The notes beneath the pieces are model-generated. The model was not told the origin of the DNA. It worked only from the letters and a program-made list of their open reading frames with translations, and searched no databases. A program made the position numbers and the translations under genes. DNA of 25,600 nucleotides from Candidatus Woesebacteria bacterium UBA925. Lineage in GTDB: Bacteria; Patescibacteriota; Microgenomatia; UBA8517. Location of the stretch: the NCBI GenBank assembly GCA_002293705.1, contig DBDT01000033.1, positions 1 through 25,600 on the forward strand. The letters are read 5' to 3'. The first letter of the stretch is position 1. Each line of letters starts with the position of its first letter. Of this stretch, positions 18-7,574 are shown one piece after another.

Positions 18-680
18 TAGTGCAGATGCGTGATTGCCTTCTCTACCCGACACAAGGTTGACCCAGCTGCGCAAGTCATGCCTACCATTGCTTTTGGGCT
101 CTGCTCCTTCCAAGGCGCTTGCAATAACATCTAATACTGGGGCTGTGTCGACGATGGCCTTAAAAACCTCACCATCTGCTACTTTATTGGTAAAATCCAC
201 CCCCCATGCTCCATCCAAACCAGCAGAGACAGAGATGCCTCCAACTTCTTGCCCCTCTTTACCAAAATTAAGAGCATAACTCCTAACTCCACCCAAAGAG
301 TCTTTGATTGACAACATAAGACCGCGACCCGAGTCACCTGAGACCCTCTCAACTCTTGTTTCAATACCCTCTTGCCCTTTAAAACTTTCTTCTACTGCTC
401 CAATCTGCTCATCTGAAAACACTCTTGGGACTTGCGATCTTAAAAGACCGTAGACTTTTGCGTTCACCCCATCTACTGTCAACCCAATTGTTGAATTAAT
501 GTCTTCGACGCCTTTTGGCTCTGCTTTAAGTAGCGCAACACTAATAATTGAGTCTGGGTTATCGATCTGAAAATCAGCAATCCTGCCAAGAGTTGAGGAT
601 ACATGGTAGGGCCTAATGTCTACAAAGGAGAGTCTTTTTGATTCAACCTGATCCGAGTTGACTTGTTCTTCTTCACCCAT
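18..680 (-). CDS. Hypothetical protein, 3'-truncated by the window edge (~220 codons visible; absent from the ORF track)
   Basis: Manual translation from ATG at 680 (MGEEEQVNSDQVESKRLSFVDIRPYHVSSTLGRIADFQID...SWVNLVSGREGNHASAL) is open to the adapter with no stop. TG-T-TATTAT lies 5 nt upstream of the ATG. No family recognised. Confidence 0.75.
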
Positions 681-1655: not shown

Positions 1656-2852
1656 TTATTTAAGAACAATCGTAAGATTATCTACGTGAGCTGTTCCAGG
1701 GAAACCAAAGTTCTTGACTCCAATAAATATATTTCTTGATATCTCAGAAGCTGTAAAGGTCTTTGTAAAGGTTAGCTTTTGCCATCCTGATGATCTTAGA
1801 TCTTTAGCATTTGCCAAACCACAGTTTGAAGAACCAAGATCTTGGAAGAATGAGCAAGTTAGTCTTGGTGCACCCCAACTTCTTCCTTCCCTAACCACCT
1901 TAACGTAAGCAGATATTTCGTATTGCACACCAGCTTTCAACAAAGTGTTGATCTGTCTTCCTACATATGAGTTGTTATTTGTAAGTATCACCCCATTTGT
2001 ACCAGCATAAAACGCCGTGTTAGAAATCTTGGCTCCAGAAATGACAAATGAAGTTAGCCCACCAGTTTCAAATGAGCCATCAAACAATGCTGAGCCAGGT
2101 ATCTGGGTTGGAGCAGGGGTAGCAGAAGGGGTAACAGTTGGTGTTGCTGAGATTGTTGAGGATGGTGTTCTAGTTGCAATAGGTGTTTGTGTTGGAGCAA
2201 CAGTTGCAGTAGGAGCAGGTGTTGGGCTTGCTGTTGCTACAACTTGAGTGACATTGACTGTTGTTGATGGCATATCGCTTTGAGCCAATAAATTTGACTG
2301 AGTTGCACCAGAAACTGCTGCAACAGTTTTATTGGTATCAAAGGAAATGGTGTGAGTTCCAGCTGTTAACGGCGAGAAAACTAAATTGACCAACACAGTA
2401 GAACTTGTTTGTGCGGGGGTTAGTGTATTTGAAGACAAGTCAAAGGTGGCAGCCGACATACTGATTAAACCATTAGTGTTTGCAGAATTAACAACATTAA
2501 CAGAATCAAATCCACCAGAAGGTAAAAATGGCATAAAGGATTTCATATTTGAGTTTGTGTTTGGCTGAATGCTAATAAGCCGGAGAGCATTTTGTGGGAA
2601 TCTGATGGCAAGGTCTACCGAACGCAAGTTTAAGGCACGCTGATTTGTGACACTGAGTGAATAAGTGAACTGTTCCCCAACTCTTGCCGAAATTGTGCTT
2701 GGAGGGACAAGAGAAATACCGTTTGCAGCTCTTGAGTTGATAAGAGTTCGTATCTGACCAATTGCCACAACCAATGCAGCCAAAAGTAGCACAGTAGGTA
2801 GTATCAAAATTAACCTAGTTTTTTTGTGATGAAATAGTCTATTTTTTCTCAT
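1656..2852 (-). CDS. Membrane-anchored cohesin-domain protein with PT-rich linker and C-terminal CBM4/9-like beta-sandwich
   Basis: Basic N-terminus plus one TM helix. Cohesin-like segment (VGEQFTYSLSV...SVDLAIRFPQNALRLISI...VLVNLVFSPLTAGTHTISF, ~2250-2710). ATASPTPAPTATVAPTQTP linker. Then LFDGSFETG...YEISAYVK...WQKLTFTKT...AHVDNLTIV, typical of CBM_4_9-like domains. ATG overlaps the upstream stop (ATGA, 2849-2852). Confidence 0.7.
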   Translation of the reverse strand: MRKNRLFHHKKTRLILILPTVLLLAALVVAIGQIRTLINSRAANGISLVPPSTISARVGEQFTYSLSVTNQRALNLRSVDLAIRFPQNALRLISIQPNTNSNMKSFMPFLPSGGFDSVNVVNSANTNGLISMSAATFDLSSNTLTPAQTSSTVLVNLVFSPLTAGTHTISFDTNKTVAAVSGATQSNLLAQSDMPSTTVNVTQVVATASPTPAPTATVAPTQTPIATRTPSSTISATPTVTPSATPAPTQIPGSALFDGSFETGGLTSFVISGAKISNTAFYAGTNGVILTNNNSYVGRQINTLLKAGVQYEISAYVKVVREGRSWGAPRLTCSFFQDLGSSNCGLANAKDLRSSGWQKLTFTKTFTASEISRNIFIGVKNFGFPGTAHVDNLTIVLK

Positions 2853-5800
2853 TTTTGCATTATCTGGCTTGGCGAATTAATGATAACAGCTGGATCTCCT
2901 TGGTACATATCTACAACACCACTTACTGTAATTGTTGACCCAACTCCATACTGGTGCAATGGGTTTTCTTCAAATTGATCAATTACAGTTGATGGAATTA
3001 TTACCTTAAAGTAATCAACGTGCGGATCATTAACTGAAAGCACTAACTGCTTTCCATTGTTGTGAGCATACGCAACGGTCATTGTTGTTGATATCAACTT
3101 ACCCTGGTAGTGTCTGGCCAGCTGCGGAGACACAACTACCGCTTGACTCTCGAAAGGATCAGAATCGGTGGAAGATGCCACAGTTGAGACAACTTGACTG
3201 TCAGCTGTCGGCGATCCTGAGCTGAAGGCTATGATTGCACCATCGGAACTCCTGAAATACAACTTATTGTTGCTTGCCACATATGAGGCGTATCCACTCC
3301 AATAGGAATCGTAGATTCTTGGTTGGTTGTAGTAAATGTAAAAACCGTAAGTAATATCTCTAGCATCACCATCATTGGTTAGAGTTGATCCAGAATAATG
3401 ACTAGTTGAAAGTGGAACATTTGAGGCCGATGCCACAATGTATGGAGCCACTGTTGTTGTAATAGGATTTGTGTACGCACCTCTTGAGTCAGACCTGTCA
3501 TTGATTCTTAGTGCATATCCGATCATCCAGTGACCACCTAGAACATAGTTACCCATTACAGACACATTTGGTTGTTCGTCGGTAACAAATGGAGGATTAT
3601 TAGGATCACTAATCCAGCGCACAAAGCCTGCTTGATAACCTGGAACTGTATTGTTGTTCAAGATAAGTTCCCCAAAGTTACTGTCCCACCTTCCATCGAC
3701 TCCAGTCTTACCTCTAATTACTGTATAGGCAACCTCTTGTCCGTTTGCCAATCTCTTTATCGCAGGCTGTGGACCCATTGGCATGTAGTTGTTGTCACCA
3801 TATCCACCGTGACCCACGTTGGTGATAAATGGAATTGATCCATCTGTCAGGCTTAGTGCATACAAAGCTTGCTGGTTTGGCTGAGACTGCAAATTAGATA
3901 GAATTGCAGCATTTGTTGTTGGCCAAGGACTCCAAGTCCAAAGAGTGTTCCAGTCTCTTCTAACCTTGATAAGAACTAAGTTGTTAGCATCAGACACCAC
4001 TGGCCAGCCATACTGAACCTCAGCATATGCTCCATCAGAGGCAACTCTTGATCTCCAAACTCGCGCAGCGTTTGAATTATTGATTCCATGAACGTTTAGA
4101 TCAGAGCTTGCAACAATAACCAAATTTCTAACCTGAGAGTAAGAAGGAGGTGTGTGTATGGTGCTACCTGCATCATAAGTCCACAAAACTTGCATAGTTG
4201 ACTTGTTTAGAGCAATAGCTTGATTACCAGACACAAACACTACCCTGTCTGATAACACTAATGGTGGCAGCGGTAGTGTGCTTGTTGCGGATGACTGATA
4301 TTGACCCAAACTTGCACCAGTTGCTGCGTTTAGCTTGTACAGTGTTCCATTGGTTGAATAGCTAAACACTGAGTTTGTGGTTGAGTCATACGCAACTGTT
4401 GAGTTCATACTTCCACCAGGATTTGATTGCCAGATCTGGCTACCAGTATTTTCATCCAAGGCGAACACTCCTCTTGTTCCAGCCGCAACATACACCCTTC
4501 CACCACCAGTTACGGGTTGAACATTTCTTGGTAGAACAGTCTTACCAGACACTGGCCTACCAGATGCATCAGGACCATTCCAACTCCACATCCATCTCCA
4601 TGGATGGGCCACTTCTTGTGGTGAGTAAGATGTTCTTTGGGCATTAAATCCATGCTGACTCCATTCACCAGAGACTGAAGTGATTGGAGTAGTAGGTGTT
4701 GGCGACACAGTAGGCGAGGGGATTGGATTTATAGTGGTGGTAGGGGTAGGTGTGGCTGCAATAGTTGGTGTTGGTGTGGATACTGGTGTAGGCACAACTG
4801 TTGGGCTAGGGGTTGAGGTTTGAGCGGTTGTTAAGATGTTTGAAACGTAAGCAAAGTCAAGAGCGTTAACCACCCCATCTTTGTATTGATCAAGTGCTGA
4901 GGTGGTGGCAACGGACATTGATGACAATATTGTTCGCAGGTCTTGCTGGTTAACTAGTCCATCTTGATTTGCATCACCATTCCCATGCACTACTGGAGTT
5001 TGGGTAGGAGTAACAGTTGCAACAGGAGTTGCGGTAGGTGTTGGATTTACAGTTGGAACTGGAGTAGCACTAGGAGTGGTCGATGGAATTCCAATAACCG
5101 ATTGTGGTGTGATTTTGTAAGCAACATCGCCGACCAAAGAGGTGATGGTTACGTCTACTGATCCTGATTGAGATGACCTCACAGTTTGAGTTGTAGAGGC
5201 CCCTGTACTTGTGTCGTATCTTTGTAGATTAAAGTCAGTAGAAGCTGGAAGACCACTGACAGTAACTGTAGATGTTACAGCTGCTGGGTTTGTATTAGCC
5301 CAACCATAAGATCTGTTTTGAGCCCAGAAATAGGCAATACCCCTTGAGGTGTTTTTCTGTCCAACAACTCTTAGATTTGAGTTACTTACATTTGCCGCCA
5401 AATCCACATAACCACCTCGATTTACATCTAGGTTTTTAACAAAGTTCCAAAACACTGTGGCAATTTGTTCCCTGTTGATAAATCTAACGTGATCTGTAAA
5501 CCAATAGTTTGGTGCAGAGAATGATCCAGAGCCAATACCGCTCCAAATAATATGCCTGTACCAAATGCCTGGATTGTTTGAATTTAGACCTGCTTGCATT
5601 GATGGTCCCCACCAATTAGGCATCTCAGATAGACCCAACTCAGCAATGACCACTGGCTTGTTTGCAGGTTGTGTTCTAAACATGTTTGCAAGACGAGACA
5701 TGCCCTCGGCAACATCAGTTAGGTAGGTAAACGAGCCAAGCTCGTTTAGAGAAGAATTGCCTGAATATTCATGTAGATCAGCATAGTCAATGTTCCCAAA

Positions 5801-7537
5801 AGAACTGCCCGACCAAAATCTAGGCCTCCAGCAGCACCAAAATGAAGTGGTTGCCAAGTGTCTGTGATAATCAATTGAATCAATGTATGAGGCAAACTCT
5901 TGAGCTGCAGCCCAGTGGGGTGAGCTTCCAGAATTGGCCGGATCTTCATTTGGAGGTCCTTCATTTACAAGTTCGAATGAGTGAACATTGGTTGAATAGC
6001 CCCACCTTGCCACAACATATCTATACCACTGTCTCCTAAGCCATCCTGCTTTTGTTGAGAATGGCTGGAAGTAGCCATCGCCCAAGGTTTGCCAGTTACT
6101 CGTCCATGAGCCGTTCCTGTAAAGCCTATTAAAGATTGGGTCATTTTTGTCATGAACCACAAACTTCAAATAAACCCCACCTCTTTTTGCATCATCTAGT
6201 AGCCAGTCAAATGCTGCAGCAGCTGTTTGCTCAACATATGTGTGGATGTCTGACTTTGAATTTCTGATCAGCTCCCCACCCAAGGTATAACCAGATGTTG
6301 GACAAGTTGAAACATTGGTTGGGTTAACCACTTCTCGAACAGAAAATTCATTAATGTAAGCTTGGCCACCGGTTACGTTATCAAGATAGATGCTAAAGTC
6401 GCTGTCAGCTGAAGTGGTTCTTCTAACAGTTTGGTAGGTTGTCCACTCATTGCTTCCAGTAAAGTGAGGGGTAAGCTGTGGATATCTTCTTAGGTCGGTG
6501 TCAATTGCATTGGGGGTTGAACCATTAATCCAGGCATGATGTCTAACAGTTAGCCCATAAGGACTACTTGAATTTCTAGGACCTGTCACATTTACAGTTT
6601 TGTAGACGAGCTTAATCTGATAACAAGTGTTGGCTTTTAGCTGAGCTTGTCCTGGTCCATTTGAAAAGCCGCTTACCCACATCCTGAATCCGTTTTGAAT
6701 ATTGTCATCTGAAGCGTTACTGTCTGGGTTGCCGTTATACCAAAGTGGGTATGACATCTCAGATCCAGGGTAAACATTTTGAGTATCAAACCTTGTACTA
6801 AACCCTTCATTTCCAAGTCTCTCAGCAGAAGATATCCACCTTGCCCAGTTTCCCGAGTATGCTCCCCAACCTGCCATCCATGGTCTGTCAAAATTTACAC
6901 CTGTTCCAACATATTGTGCGTAACTGATATCAGTAGCTGCTGGATTGGTGGATTTTCCTTTGTTATCTAGCCAAGCAGGCCCTATTGGCCAAAATAGTGA
7001 CCTGTTTGAGAACTCAAAATACCTGCTGTCAGATTGGCTAACCTTAACAAATCCTGGATTTGAAGAAGAAACCACATTCACTGTACCCACTGAATATGTT
7101 GATGAACCATCGGCATCGGTTGCCTTTAAGACAATAGTGTGTTGTCCCAGCTCTTGGGGTGAAAATCTTAATGCCCAATATGATTCACTCTTTTGCTGAA
7201 ACCTGTGGGTAGTACCTGAAACAAACCTTTCAGCCTCTGTCATATAAAAGGCTGGGTGTGTGGCGACCCTTCCACTTGGAGAGCGGATCTCACCTTCCAC
7301 AGTTATTCCAGTTCTTGAACCTACTCCTTGTGGGGTAGAAGTTGAGTATTCAAAGAACAAATTTTTAGCAGAAGTTGATACGTCAAATTTAACTTCATAT
7401 TTTTCATAAAGACCAACCTGTGTTGGAGCAGTCCTGATGCCAGTTATTGTGGCGGCTCTTGAATCTACAGGAAGCAGTGCTGAGAGGAAAATAAACGTTG
7501 TAAAAAATGTCAAAAAGACAGCAGACTTTAACTTCAT
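2849..7537 (-). CDS. Giant secreted multidomain glycoside hydrolase: signal peptide, DUF5060-like N-domain, clan GH-A (GH5-like) catalytic domain, dockerin, PQQ-like beta-propeller, C-terminal OB-fold (~1562 aa)
   Basis: Signal peptide MKLKSAVFLTFF...VDSRA. VGLYEKYEVKF (DUF5060-like start). Catalytic pair FELVNEG (Glu codon 5960-5962) and VVIAELG (Glu codon 5639-5641). Two PT linkers flank the EF-hand-like repeats DANQDGLVNQQD and DQYKDGVVNALD (~4844-4984). WSQHGFNAQRTS and ALDENTGSQIW mark PQQ-type blades (~3220-4669). The tail ending ITVSGVVDMYQGDPAVIINSPSQI is OB-fold-like. Start taken as ATG 7537, 6 nt after TATAAT. Confidence 0.8.
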   Translation of the reverse strand: MKLKSAVFLTFFTTFIFLSALLPVDSRAATITGIRTAPTQVGLYEKYEVKFDVSTSAKNLFFEYSTSTPQGVGSRTGITVEGEIRSPSGRVATHPAFYMTEAERFVSGTTHRFQQKSESYWALRFSPQELGQHTIVLKATDADGSSTYSVGTVNVVSSSNPGFVKVSQSDSRYFEFSNRSLFWPIGPAWLDNKGKSTNPAATDISYAQYVGTGVNFDRPWMAGWGAYSGNWARWISSAERLGNEGFSTRFDTQNVYPGSEMSYPLWYNGNPDSNASDDNIQNGFRMWVSGFSNGPGQAQLKANTCYQIKLVYKTVNVTGPRNSSSPYGLTVRHHAWINGSTPNAIDTDLRRYPQLTPHFTGSNEWTTYQTVRRTTSADSDFSIYLDNVTGGQAYINEFSVREVVNPTNVSTCPTSGYTLGGELIRNSKSDIHTYVEQTAAAAFDWLLDDAKRGGVYLKFVVHDKNDPIFNRLYRNGSWTSNWQTLGDGYFQPFSTKAGWLRRQWYRYVVARWGYSTNVHSFELVNEGPPNEDPANSGSSPHWAAAQEFASYIDSIDYHRHLATTSFWCCWRPRFWSGSSFGNIDYADLHEYSGNSSLNELGSFTYLTDVAEGMSRLANMFRTQPANKPVVIAELGLSEMPNWWGPSMQAGLNSNNPGIWYRHIIWSGIGSGSFSAPNYWFTDHVRFINREQIATVFWNFVKNLDVNRGGYVDLAANVSNSNLRVVGQKNTSRGIAYFWAQNRSYGWANTNPAAVTSTVTVSGLPASTDFNLQRYDTSTGASTTQTVRSSQSGSVDVTITSLVGDVAYKITPQSVIGIPSTTPSATPVPTVNPTPTATPVATVTPTQTPVVHGNGDANQDGLVNQQDLRTILSSMSVATTSALDQYKDGVVNALDFAYVSNILTTAQTSTPSPTVVPTPVSTPTPTIAATPTPTTTINPIPSPTVSPTPTTPITSVSGEWSQHGFNAQRTSYSPQEVAHPWRWMWSWNGPDASGRPVSGKTVLPRNVQPVTGGGRVYVAAGTRGVFALDENTGSQIWQSNPGGSMNSTVAYDSTTNSVFSYSTNGTLYKLNAATGASLGQYQSSATSTLPLPPLVLSDRVVFVSGNQAIALNKSTMQVLWTYDAGSTIHTPPSYSQVRNLVIVASSDLNVHGINNSNAARVWRSRVASDGAYAEVQYGWPVVSDANNLVLIKVRRDWNTLWTWSPWPTTNAAILSNLQSQPNQQALYALSLTDGSIPFITNVGHGGYGDNNYMPMGPQPAIKRLANGQEVAYTVIRGKTGVDGRWDSNFGELILNNNTVPGYQAGFVRWISDPNNPPFVTDEQPNVSVMGNYVLGGHWMIGYALRINDRSDSRGAYTNPITTTVAPYIVASASNVPLSTSHYSGSTLTNDGDARDITYGFYIYYNQPRIYDSYWSGYASYVASNNKLYFRSSDGAIIAFSSGSPTADSQVVSTVASSTDSDPFESQAVVVSPQLARHYQGKLISTTMTVAYAHNNGKQLVLSVNDPHVDYFKVIIPSTVIDQFEENPLHQYGVGSTITVSGVVDMYQGDPAVIINSPSQIMQK

Positions 7538-7543
7538 GTATTC

Positions 7544-7574
7544 ATTATATGTACTCAACTCACTAGCTTGTCAA
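7544..7574 (-). promoter_or_regulatory. Sigma70-type promoter of the GH/cohesin operon
   Basis: Minus strand TTGACA (7574-7569), 19-nt spacer, TATAAT (7549-7544), 6 nt, then ATG 7537. The spacer is slightly long. Confidence 0.55.

Follow-up and report, generated by a model that had tools for sequence, protein, structure and literature searches.

Does the overlapping gene pair at positions 1,656 to 7,574 of a 25,600-nucleotide stretch of Candidatus Woesebacteria bacterium UBA925 (contig DBDT01000033.1, assembly GCA_002293705.1; hereinafter the window) encode a cellulosome-style complex, in which a dockerin-bearing hydrolase is joined to a cohesin partner of its own? An initial annotation, made from the letters alone, had proposed as much and had placed the DNA in a probable CPR bacterium, in keeping with the nearest named Lon neighbors, which are from Ca. 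Woesebacteria (60–68% identity). We predict that the pair indeed specifies such a two-part complex, which appears to be real but not unprecedented: a two-gene operon for an exported enzyme and a one-cohesin mini-scaffoldin, which would form a heterodimer, somewhat more likely targeted to a substrate than tethered to the membrane. To this explanation as a whole we assign a probability of roughly 0.6.

Both genes and all features described below lie on the reverse strand. The enzyme gene, P0001 (2849..7537), codes for 1562 residues from an ATG at 7537, matching the secreted protein of about 1560 residues that had been anticipated, and the database copy of the enzyme (P0005) likewise begins at the ATG and has 1562 residues. 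The reading frame is open from a TTG at 7558, seven codons before the ATG, and our residue numbers for P0001 are counted from there; this TTG was rejected as the start because it falls within the promoter and lacks conservation. The partner gene, P0002 (1656..2852; 398 residues), overlaps the end of P0001 in an ATGA stop/start at 2849..2852, read directly from the DNA, upstream of which no Shine–Dalgarno sequence is visible. The promoter (7544..7574) consists of TTGACA at 7574–7569 and TATAAT at 7549–7544 with a 19-nt spacer; it is absent from the list of a generic scanner because that scanner allows only spacers of 16–18 nt, and shuffled sequences yield promoter-like matches at least as often as the region does. 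Two close relatives (94% and 85% protein identity; L001 and L003) retain the gene pair, the overlap and the promoter hexamers with their spacing, with variation in the spacer and the upstream DNA, so that both of these signals in the initial annotation are present and conserved. Since the ATG lies only 6 nt past TATAAT, the enzyme transcript is probably leaderless. Expression is thinly documented: short contigs from one soil metatranscriptome match the enzyme gene only and might stem from DNA carry-over.

The enzyme displays, in order, a signal peptide, a DUF5060 domain, a GH5 barrel, a PT linker, a dockerin, a second PT linker, a PQQ-type propeller and a small C-terminal domain, with no recognized CBM of its own. 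The Sec signal peptide (MKLK...PVDSRA/A; 7454..7537, residues 8–35, with a hydrophobic stretch at 10–33) is predicted to be cleaved at SRA/A, the slash marking the putative site. It is followed by the catalytic region (5099..7453, residues 36–820), which comprises the Ig-like DUF5060 domain, the (β/α)8 GH5 module with an insertion of ~215 residues (234–448), and a C-terminal β-sandwich. GH5 enzymes employ an Asn-Glu acid/base on strand 4 and a Glu nucleophile on strand 7; conservation and alignment to the structure of ManDH5 identify these as E533 (codon 5960–5962) and E640 (codon 5639–5641). None of 99 homologs departs from N532, E533, H596 or E640, and conservation is at least 96% for R225, Y598 and W672. 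ManDH5, the GH5 β-D-mannanase of Dictyoglomus thermophilum (PDB 9gmj, 9gpa, 9gpc-g), is the nearest solved relative (9gmj; E 2.4e-19 with a single sequence, 1e-66 by profile), and the AlphaFold (AF2) model of the module (mean pLDDT 90, pTM 0.91) retrieves it by Foldseek with E 5e-32 and a TM of 0.77 by target, the runners-up being other GH5, GH140, GH30 and GH44 barrels. With the barrel, the catalytic Glu pair and the signature residues all in place, the clan GH-A assignment of the initial annotation is refined to a ManDH5-like GH5.

The two enzymes share an N-terminal DUF5060 domain followed by the GH5 barrel, an NE acid/base motif in which E303 corresponds to E533, and a nucleophile motif in which GEFG aligns with AELG. 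ManDH5 is the only characterized relative, a β-mannanase according to its PDB titles, and by virtue of the likeness a β-mannan-type substrate is our best guess. However, its substrate is not confidently transferable because the identity is only ~16% in the structural alignment and the present family has the ~215-residue insertion and an extra C-terminal sandwich. Beyond the dockerin, the PQQ_2/BamB-like β-propeller (3299..4666, residues ~965–1420; Pfam PQQ_2 E 1e-21) is found in L048 as a separate dockerin-bearing gene adjoining the GH-Doc gene. The C-terminal domain of ~100 residues (2852..3151) is possibly an OB fold, with faint matches only to the tRNA_anti-codon OB family. Its homolog in L045 (E 8e-23) is a separate 155-residue protein with an N-terminal hydrophobic segment, whose gene is placed between the enzyme and cohesin genes.

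The duplicated Ca-binding dockerin first described between two PT linkers was located at 4829..4996 (residues ~855–910), flanked by linkers at 4982–5095 (residues 822–859) and 4667–4834 (residues 909–964). It has two loop/helix repeats, with tandem 12-residue EF-hand-like loops DANQDGLVNQQD (residues 862–873) and DQYKDGVVNALD (residues 890–901). As a type I dockerin (PF00404), it matches the Pfam Dockerin_1 profile with 22.7 bits by hmmscan (cut-off 22.9) and 29.7 bits in a six-frame search, and the lineage profile with 67 bits. All 15 dockerins compared have aspartate at positions 1 and 12 of both loops (D862, D873, D890 and D901). Position 3 of loop 2 is Tyr rather than Asp or Asn and, as a result, this loop lacks one side-chain Ca ligand.

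In P0002, an N-terminal hydrophobic segment is followed by a cohesin that a PT linker connects to a CBM_4_9 module. The cohesin (2256..2732, residues ~41–199) is recovered by Pfam, a lineage HMM, PDB profiles, Foldseek and Atlas. The Pfam Cohesin profile (PF00963) matches residues 53–186 with 23.8 bits by hmmscan (cut-off 24.1) and with 25.1 bits, above the cut-off, in the six-frame search; the leave-self-out lineage HMM yields 34 bits, with 500 shuffles reaching at most 12.7, and a profile including this domain matches PDB cohesins (ScaB cohesin) at 8e-14. The top 27 PDB matches of its AF2 model by Foldseek are all cohesins (E 7e-9 to 4e-5; TM by target mostly 0.6–0.75, lower for multi-domain chains), and structural matches to cohesin clusters in the Atlas have TM values of 0.59–0.73. 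The model shows the nine-stranded β-sandwich (jelly-roll) fold with a core pLDDT of 70–93, and ~15 inserted residues that are poorly modeled at 105–124. The PT linker (2097..2240, residues 205–252) leads to the CBM_4_9-like module (1659..2090, residues 255–398; PF02018, 27.0–29.5 bits against a cut-off of 25.9), which is modeled with low confidence (pLDDT <50) because only three homologs are aligned in that part. The three modules ascribed to this protein are all found, and both the cohesin and the dockerin folds are genuine. An alternative, that the two modules are decayed relics that no longer bind, leaving enzyme and CBM protein to act freely and independently, might be read from the hmmscan scores of both domains, which fall just below the Pfam gathering cut-offs, from the Tyr in loop 2, and from the inserted residues of the cohesin. 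We consider it extremely unlikely, given the invariant loop aspartates, the conserved overlap and promoter, the confident co-fold (see below), and the fact that a distant ortholog set retains both the Phe/Tyr variant and the cohesin insertions, implying purifying selection.

Do these two domains, then, pair with each other? Searches with Pfam models and lineage profiles found a single cohesin and a single dockerin in the 758-kb assembly, from which others could be missing because the genome is only 73% complete; for a sole cohesin and a sole dockerin, landing in neighboring genes by chance has a probability of roughly 2 in ~800 genes. In line with the proposed pairing, co-folding of the two domains predicts a complex with ipSAE values of 0.90, 0.90 and 0.89 in three runs, against 0.05 for the best of three controls, and both dockerin helices touch the cohesin sheet in it. 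Of 80 solved complexes, 58 attain this ipSAE mark, as do 2 of 110 mismatched pairs. Cohesin–dockerin complexes are abundant in the PDB, and the high score may for this reason reflect family likeness or memory rather than the affinity of this particular pair.

The relatives offer a further line of evidence. P0010 has the same GH-Doc-PQQ architecture at 43% enzyme identity to P0001, and downstream of its gene the C-terminal domain recurs as a split-off copy, with a cohesin protein that has the unusual insertions of P0002 coming next. In the sister genus G129, the orthologous GH-Doc-PQQ gene is followed by two further genes, for a dockerin protein and then for a cohesin protein anchored by a C-terminal TM segment. 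Order-wide, cohesins are present in 50 and dockerins in 60 of 139 genomes, and 32 of the 39 genomes holding both encode them within 2.5 kb of each other, with a chance expectation of ~1–2 genomes; the adjacency on which the initial annotation had staked its proposal is hence kept in relatives. Because of the genome uniqueness, the co-fold, the co-inherited ortholog set and the order-wide adjacency, we predict that the P0001 dockerin and the P0002 cohesin are likely a cognate pair. Alternatively, both domains could be genuine without being mutual partners, each binding another cohesin, dockerin or ligand, with adjacency reflecting shared regulation only; the cohesin of the P0001 dockerin would then be missing from the incomplete assembly or reside in another organism. 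Cross-species cohesin–dockerin recognition is documented (PMC13487519), and no cohesin lies near seven of the GH-Doc homologs on the contigs or flanks covered. We nevertheless deem this very unlikely in light of a 758-kb assembly with just one of each domain, a co-fold that beats all three controls, the co-inheritance of enzyme and cohesin with common insertions at 43% enzyme identity, and dockerin–cohesin adjacency being the rule across the order.

The destination of P0002 is the point on which we part from the initial annotation, which had cast it as a membrane-anchored surface anchor. Its hydrophobic segment (2757..2816, residues 13–32) is followed by SRA/ANG and may act as a signal peptide or stay in place as a signal-anchor. 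P0002 has no LPXTG-like signal, hydrophobic tail, SLH or C-terminal TM anchor and ends in the CBM. Of 27 cohesin proteins from relatives, 12 have [LI]PxxG and a hydrophobic tail at the C-terminus, and another 4 have variant motifs there; the genome encodes 3 sortases. The relatives' N-terminal signal peptides are probably cleaved, as the same proteins end in LPXTG-like sorting signals. As P0002 carries a CBM where relatives have sortase signals, substrate targeting is at least as likely as membrane anchoring, and whether the complex stays on its producer would depend on the cleavage of the N-terminal segment. We regard the originally proposed uncleaved signal-anchor as a somewhat doubtful alternative; P0002 would then be a membrane-tethered one-cohesin anchor displaying the enzyme on the producer's surface, and its CBM would help the cell stick to a glycan surface, possibly that of a host cell. 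It accords with the long h-region (~20 residues, KD up to 2.9), with the 10 residues from there to the candidate cleavage site, more than is usual in a c-region, and with the single continuous helix at residues 8–43 of the AF2 model. Moreover, the terminal cohesin protein of G129 is membrane-anchored via its C-terminal TM segment, most relatives' cohesins are wall-anchored, making surface display the lineage norm, and the retention of products near the cell would be sensible for an ultra-small cell. On the other side, SRA/A is the same motif as in the enzyme and aligns with the conserved AAPA site of the probably cleaved relatives, P0002 is devoid of LPXTG, SLH and C-terminal TM anchors, and a cohesin plus a CBM with no anchor is the architecture of the cell-free ClcC type.

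We somewhat favor a cleaved, substrate-targeted heterodimer over a membrane-tethered one. The operon would be transcribed from the TTGACA-N19-TATAAT promoter, and its second gene would be translated via termination–reinitiation at the ATGA overlap. The first gene would give rise to a Sec-secreted, retaining GH5 glycanase with an internal dockerin, a PQQ-type propeller and a small C-terminal domain, and the second to an exported protein in which a PT linker joins a single cohesin to a CBM_4_9 module. Extracellularly, the dockerin would plug into the cohesin in a Ca-dependent manner, and P0002 would thereby act as a one-cohesin mini-scaffoldin supplying a CBM in trans to the enzyme. That translational coupling sets a 1:1 stoichiometry is speculation, as is the erosion of host or biofilm glycans.

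Across the order, the dockerin-bearing exo-enzymes include GH5, a phytase–CBM96 protein and a CBM_4_9-bearing protein. As tails, the cohesin proteins bear sortase signals, TM anchors or further dockerins, and P0002 bears a CBM. We tentatively posit, at slightly less than even odds, an operon-encoded plug-and-display arrangement throughout the lineage, wherein each dockerin exo-enzyme is followed by its own cohesin gene and the tails are interchangeable. If so, the tail would decide whether the enzyme is destined for the cell wall, the membrane, a higher-tier scaffold or a substrate, and P0001/P0002 would stand at the substrate-targeted end of a lineage-wide system not described in the literature.

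Cohesin and dockerin proteins have come up in CPR bacteria before: they are expressed in a Ca. Shapirobacterales metaproteome (bioRxiv 10.1101/2021.08.21.457207), a dockerin protein is essential in Southlakia epibionticum (PMC10633639), and such proteins were proposed to act on glycans (both reports). However, those reports list the domains only; they give neither a cognate pair nor an operon structure, and predict no partner. With classical cellulosomes (Acetivibrio thermocellus CipA/OlpB/SdbA and the Ruminococcus flavefaciens Sca cluster) the Woesebacteria pair shares a duplicated Ca-binding dockerin on a glycoside hydrolase, a cohesin β-sandwich on a non-catalytic CBM-bearing partner, and PT-rich linkers. 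It differs in having one cohesin rather than many and a single enzyme, with no multi-cohesin scaffoldin in the assembly; in the absence of SLH or sortase anchoring from P0002, as against 16 of 27 relatives with sorting-type ends; and in that cellulose is not indicated as the substrate. The cohesins of Clostridium perfringens GH84C/NagJ (2jh2, 2o4e) and Archaeoglobus fulgidus (2xdh), which are among the structural and profile matches of P0002, likewise offer a pairwise plug-and-socket outside the cellulosome, but they join toxins or glycosidases or are orphans, whereas P0002 is a dedicated CBM protein from the same operon.

The closest parallel is clostridial. The initial annotation knew of no characterized coupled cognate pair, a claim now overtaken by ClcC (CBM3-X2-cohesin) and ClcD (GH5-dockerin) of the Firmicute Cellulosilyticum lentocellum, reported in 2026, which form a heterodimer that raises activity on insoluble substrate (PMC13487519). 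The Woesebacteria pair differs from it in its Patescibacteria lineage; in its enzyme-first order with an ATGA overlap, as opposed to a 40-bp gap and separate ribosome-binding sites; in its internal dockerin, followed by the propeller and an extra domain; in its ManDH5-like GH5 with DUF5060 and a 215-residue insertion, in place of a GH5_1 cellulase; in its CBM_4_9, in place of CBM3 and X2; and in that its binding is predicted in silico only. The design is nonetheless almost identical, and P0001/P0002 belongs to the same minimal single-pair type, with the caveat of a 73%-complete genome: in either case the only cohesin and the only dockerin of the genome are encoded by adjacent, co-oriented genes under one promoter, with the enzyme combining GH5 and a dockerin without a CBM of its own, and the partner combining a CBM with one cohesin and no SLH or sortase anchor.

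The dockerin of P0001, the GH5-dockerin-PQQ enzyme, and the cohesin of P0002, its 398-aa cohesin-CBM_4_9 partner, probably pair, as indicated by four independent lines of evidence. The assembly that encodes them (758 kb in 92 contigs; 73% complete) was rightly suspected to derive from a CPR bacterium, the neighbouring Lon protease being 60-68% identical to that of MAGs titled Candidatus Woesebacteria, Microgenomates or Patescibacteria. The Lon proteins of many public MAG records titled 'uncultured Gammaproteobacteria bacterium' (L049, L050, L053-L055 and others) are also 61-71% identical to that of the window and fall among the Woesebacteria records; these titles are probably wrong. Bioreactor-sludge metagenomes contain DNA nearly identical to the window, and those from soil, wastewater and algae-associated sources contain related DNA.

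The two genes lie on the minus strand, with P0001 first called as an ORF with a TTG start at 2849-7558 and P0002 at 1656-2852. Upstream of the enzyme gene, the promoter described in the initial annotation is present as TTGACA (7574-7569) and TATAAT (7549-7544) separated by a 19-nt spacer, with an ATG at 7537 coming 6 nt after the latter hexamer. The hexamers, their spacing and this ATG are kept in both of two relatives from public assemblies, whose partner proteins are 94% and 85% identical to P0002, while the spacer sequence and upstream DNA vary. This promoter is likely to be real; a generic scan, whose limits do not extend to 19-nt spacers, returned no statistical support for promoters in the region. 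The TTG at 7558 was dropped as a start as it sits within the promoter spacer and is not conserved. Since the ATG is conserved in them and the TTG is not, we place the start of P0001 at 7537, giving a 1562-aa protein that begins at the same position as its database copy, P0005. The P0001 mRNA is probably leaderless. Residue numbers used here count from the TTG, and subtracting 7 yields those from the ATG. The stop codon of P0001 and the start codon of P0002 overlap as ATGA at 2849-2852 (minus strand), as had been read earlier, and do so identically in both relatives. Given this conservation and that no Shine-Dalgarno sequence is visible upstream of the P0002 ATG, it is reasonable to regard P0002 as translationally coupled to P0001. 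A terminator scan 3' of P0002 gave no convincing candidate. In one soil metatranscriptome library, contigs of 151-229 nt with 0-15 mismatches match the enzyme gene at 3722-7379, including the dockerin region, and none matches P0002 or the gene junction. This evidence for expression is thin, could reflect DNA carry-over, and is insufficient to claim co-transcription.

P0001 opens with a signal peptide of typical form (aa 8-35, ending SRA|A), followed by a single conserved catalytic unit (aa about 36-820), with 1747 representatives in a metagenome library of 1.8 billion proteins at E <= 0.001, of which 260 reach E <= 1e-30. Pfam detects just a weak DUF5060 in the catalytic units of the relatives. 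Chains 9gmj and 9gpc match this unit at an E-value of 2.4e-19 (1e-66 with the family profile) and are identified in the Foldseek output as the Dictyoglomus thermophilum GH5 beta-D-mannanase ManDH5; weaker profile matches are to fungal and bacterial GH5 beta-mannanases. An AlphaFold model of residues 31-830 (pLDDT 90, pTM 0.91) likewise retrieves ManDH5 in Foldseek (E 5e-32; TM 0.77 by target). N532, E533, H596 and E640 do not vary across 99 homologues with 25-49% identity, in which R225, Y598 and W672 reach at least 96% conservation; this set is the GH5/clan GH-A signature. E533 aligns with ManDH5 E303, which is mutated (E303Q) in the deposited substrate complexes. Together, the predicted signal peptide, this signature and the ManDH5-like model uphold the proposal of a secreted clan GH-A hydrolase. 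Relative to ManDH5, the family of P0001 shares an insertion of ~215 aa (residues 234-448), and Atlas and Pfam searches with the region spanning aa 230-450 gave no match. We found no paper on 9GMJ/ManDH5 and nothing useful in the DUF5060 literature. P0001 differs from its family in having Phe528 (window 5960-5977, minus strand), 5 residues ahead of the catalytic Glu, in place of a Trp found in 93% of members, and Arg668 (window 5555-5557, minus strand) in place of a His found in 94%; lying near the active site, these might alter specificity or activity. Based on the affinity to ManDH5 and the GH5 mannanases, the substrate is most likely a beta-mannan-type or related beta-glycan, which is a guess given the low identity and the large insertion. 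A beta-mannan-type substrate would fit the sludge, soil and algal habitats. More generally, these observations point to a large uncharacterised GH5-related family combining DUF5060 with an interrupted barrel, many members of which are dockerin-tagged.

As had been proposed, the catalytic unit is followed by a duplicated Ca-binding dockerin motif, with loops DANQDGLVNQQD and DQYKDGVVNALD, between two PT linkers (aa 822-859 and 909-964). In this family, from metagenomes as well as from the order, the common architecture is a GH module with a dockerin directly after it. In 15 dockerins attached to the same GH family D1 and D12 are invariant in both loops; loop 2 of P0001 has a Tyr at position 3 and is missing one Ca ligand. 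Positions 10-11 of the repeats are the usual rule for distinguishing single from dual binding modes (PMC13487519), and their divergence in P0001 (QQ versus AL) argues for a single mode. Beyond the second linker lie a PQQ_2/BamB-type beta-propeller (aa about 965-1420) and a C-terminal domain of ~100 aa (window 2852-3151, minus strand) with faint OB-fold hints; Atlas and Pfam searches with the C-terminal 100-170 aa gave faint leads only. Both elements occur separately elsewhere. An unrelated metagenome contig (L048:4651-13251) carries four consecutive dockerin-bearing genes, namely unknown-Doc, GH5(DUF5060)-Doc, PQQ-propeller-Doc and pectate-lyase-like-TSP3-Doc, such that the GH module and propeller fused in the window are there encoded by separate adjacent genes. 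Similarly, in a distant ortholog locus, that of the homologue P0010 described below, the C-terminal domain (E 8e-23) forms a stand-alone protein of 155 aa whose N-terminus has a hydrophobic segment (L045:5936-6403), its gene sitting between those of the enzyme and a cohesin protein and overlapping the latter by 4 nt. That each is a neighbouring gene elsewhere argues that the propeller and C-terminal domain would act together with the enzyme, and this fusion or fission marks the C-terminal domain as a third conserved component.

The cohesin of P0002 (aa about 43-200, minus strand) is borderline in Pfam, scoring 23.8 bits by hmmscan against a cut-off of 24.1 and 25.1 bits in a six-frame search. 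A profile of the relatives' cohesins built without P0002 nevertheless scores it at 34 bits, where 500 shuffles reached at most 12.7, and the lineage profile matches solved cohesins with E-values down to 8e-14. The core of the AlphaFold model is confidently predicted; cohesins make up all of the model's first 27 PDB matches, and the ESM Atlas model agrees with this fold. The cohesin-like domain of the initial annotation is thus recovered, as are its PT linker (aa 205-252) and CBM-like module, a CBM_4_9 of 27.0-29.5 bits (cut-off 25.9) that AlphaFold models without confidence. Word-based searches with the whole of P0002 or its cohesin region returned two near-identical relatives and nothing further, and a whole-genome protein search gave mostly PT-linker matches.

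By Pfam and lineage-specific profiles, the assembly encodes exactly one dockerin and one cohesin, in these adjacent genes. Co-folding the cohesin (aa 40-200) and dockerin (aa 853-912) with two Ca ions gave ipSAE values of 0.90, 0.90 and 0.89, compared to 0.05 for the best of three controls; the score would express likeness to binding pairs, many cohesin-dockerin complexes having been solved, rather than affinity. Of 80 solved complexes 58 attained that mark, as did 2 of 110 mismatched pairs. In the predicted complex both dockerin helices rest on the cohesin sheet. A comparable locus comes from unrelated samples: P0010, a homologue with the same GH-Doc-PQQ architecture (43% identity), is followed by the 155-aa homologue of the C-terminal domain noted above and then, with a 4-nt overlap, by a 475-aa protein whose cohesin shares the unusual insertions of P0002 (30% identity over aa 79-247, extending into the PT linker). 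Pfam found no cohesin next to P0010 or two further homologues, P0009 and P0032, and it was a lineage-specific HMM that revealed this one, implying that Pfam alone under-calls these cohesins. A search for loci related to that of P0001 found none. Within the order, L132 (1349-8263) has three abutting or overlapping genes, coding for a 1530-aa orthologous GH5-Doc-PQQ protein, a 365-aa protein ending in a dockerin and a 408-aa cohesin-fn3-CarboxypepD_reg protein anchored by a TM segment at its C-terminus, an apparently hierarchical set. In two other genomes (G011 and G098) cohesin genes lie directly upstream of the GH-Doc gene. Cohesins are present in 50 and dockerins in 60 of the 139 genomes of the order, and in 32 of the 39 with both the two lie no more than 2.5 kb apart on the same contig (counted from listed coordinates plus one cohesin match from the whole-genome protein search), against our chance expectation of roughly 1-2 genomes (~2 cohesins and ~3 dockerins per 0.9 Mb). 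In about 19 of the 32, the dockerin-bearing gene is immediately upstream of the cohesin gene. Adjacency is conserved in this order, with varying cargo: within the same family, a 1290-aa Metallophos-phytase-CBM96-Doc protein directly precedes a 444-aa cohesin protein at L134 (1844-7055), and a 1132-aa protein bearing CBM_4_9 and a dockerin directly precedes a 351-aa one at L133 (998-5570). Counted against the pairing are several GH-Doc homologues whose short contigs or retrieved flanks show no cohesin, together with the borderline Pfam scores, the missing loop-2 ligand and the incomplete genome.

How the complex would be deployed depends on the termini of P0002. Among 27 cohesin proteins of relatives sharing its N-terminal layout, 12 terminate in [LI]PxxG and a hydrophobic tail, a further 4 in variant motifs, 3 in a TM segment with a charged tail and 5 in a dockerin. 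As most single-cohesin proteins (L014-L043) end in LPXTG-like signals and the genome itself has three sortases (C3:23060-23452, C90:5943-6350 and C27:9056-9463), sortase-anchored cohesins appear to be the common state in this order. P0002 itself has no sorting signal, and its CBM stands in the anchor position of the relatives. Its N-terminus comprises basic residues, a 20-residue hydrophobic segment (aa 13-32) and then QIRTLINSRA|ANG. The hydrophobic segment proposed as a membrane anchor therefore exists, and its long h-region and long c-region would suit a tether. However, the N-terminal signal peptide is normally cleaved from sortase substrates, and the SRA|ANG of P0002, echoing the SRA|A of the enzyme, aligns with the conserved AAPA site of relatives whose sortase signals imply a cleaved N-terminus. 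Given this alignment, the lack of a sorting signal and the replacement of the anchor by a CBM, we consider it somewhat more likely that P0002 is a cleaved, secreted cohesin-CBM 'mini-scaffoldin' lending the enzyme a CBM than that it is membrane-tethered.

CPR genomes are tiny and encode few enzymes, and to our knowledge little is established about how these bacteria deploy the few exo-enzymes they retain. With two proteins and one predicted interface, P0001 and P0002 offer a clean test case that can show if cohesin-dockerin docking operates in Patescibacteria and can separate substrate targeting by a CBM in trans from cell-surface display. The closest known system is ClcC (CBM3-X2-Coh) and ClcD (GH5-Doc) of Cellulosilyticum lentocellum, the sole cohesin and sole dockerin of that genome, which are encoded by adjacent genes under one promoter and form a demonstrated heterodimer with raised activity on insoluble cellulose (PMC13487519). 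The sole cohesin and dockerin are likewise in adjacent genes here, with their pairing being predicted. Within CPR, cohesin and dockerin proteins are reported to be expressed in Ca. Shapirobacterales (10.1101/2021.08.21.457207) and a dockerin protein is essential in Southlakia (PMC10633639). As the concept is established in Firmicutes and the domains are known in CPR, the advance is incremental; what is particular to P0001 and P0002 is that the host is a CPR bacterium, that the enzyme cargo belongs to an uncharacterised GH5-related family, that its dockerin is internal and that a CBM stands where an anchor is usual. The most interesting extension would be an order-wide pairing written into operons, in which the tails of the cohesin proteins are interchangeable.
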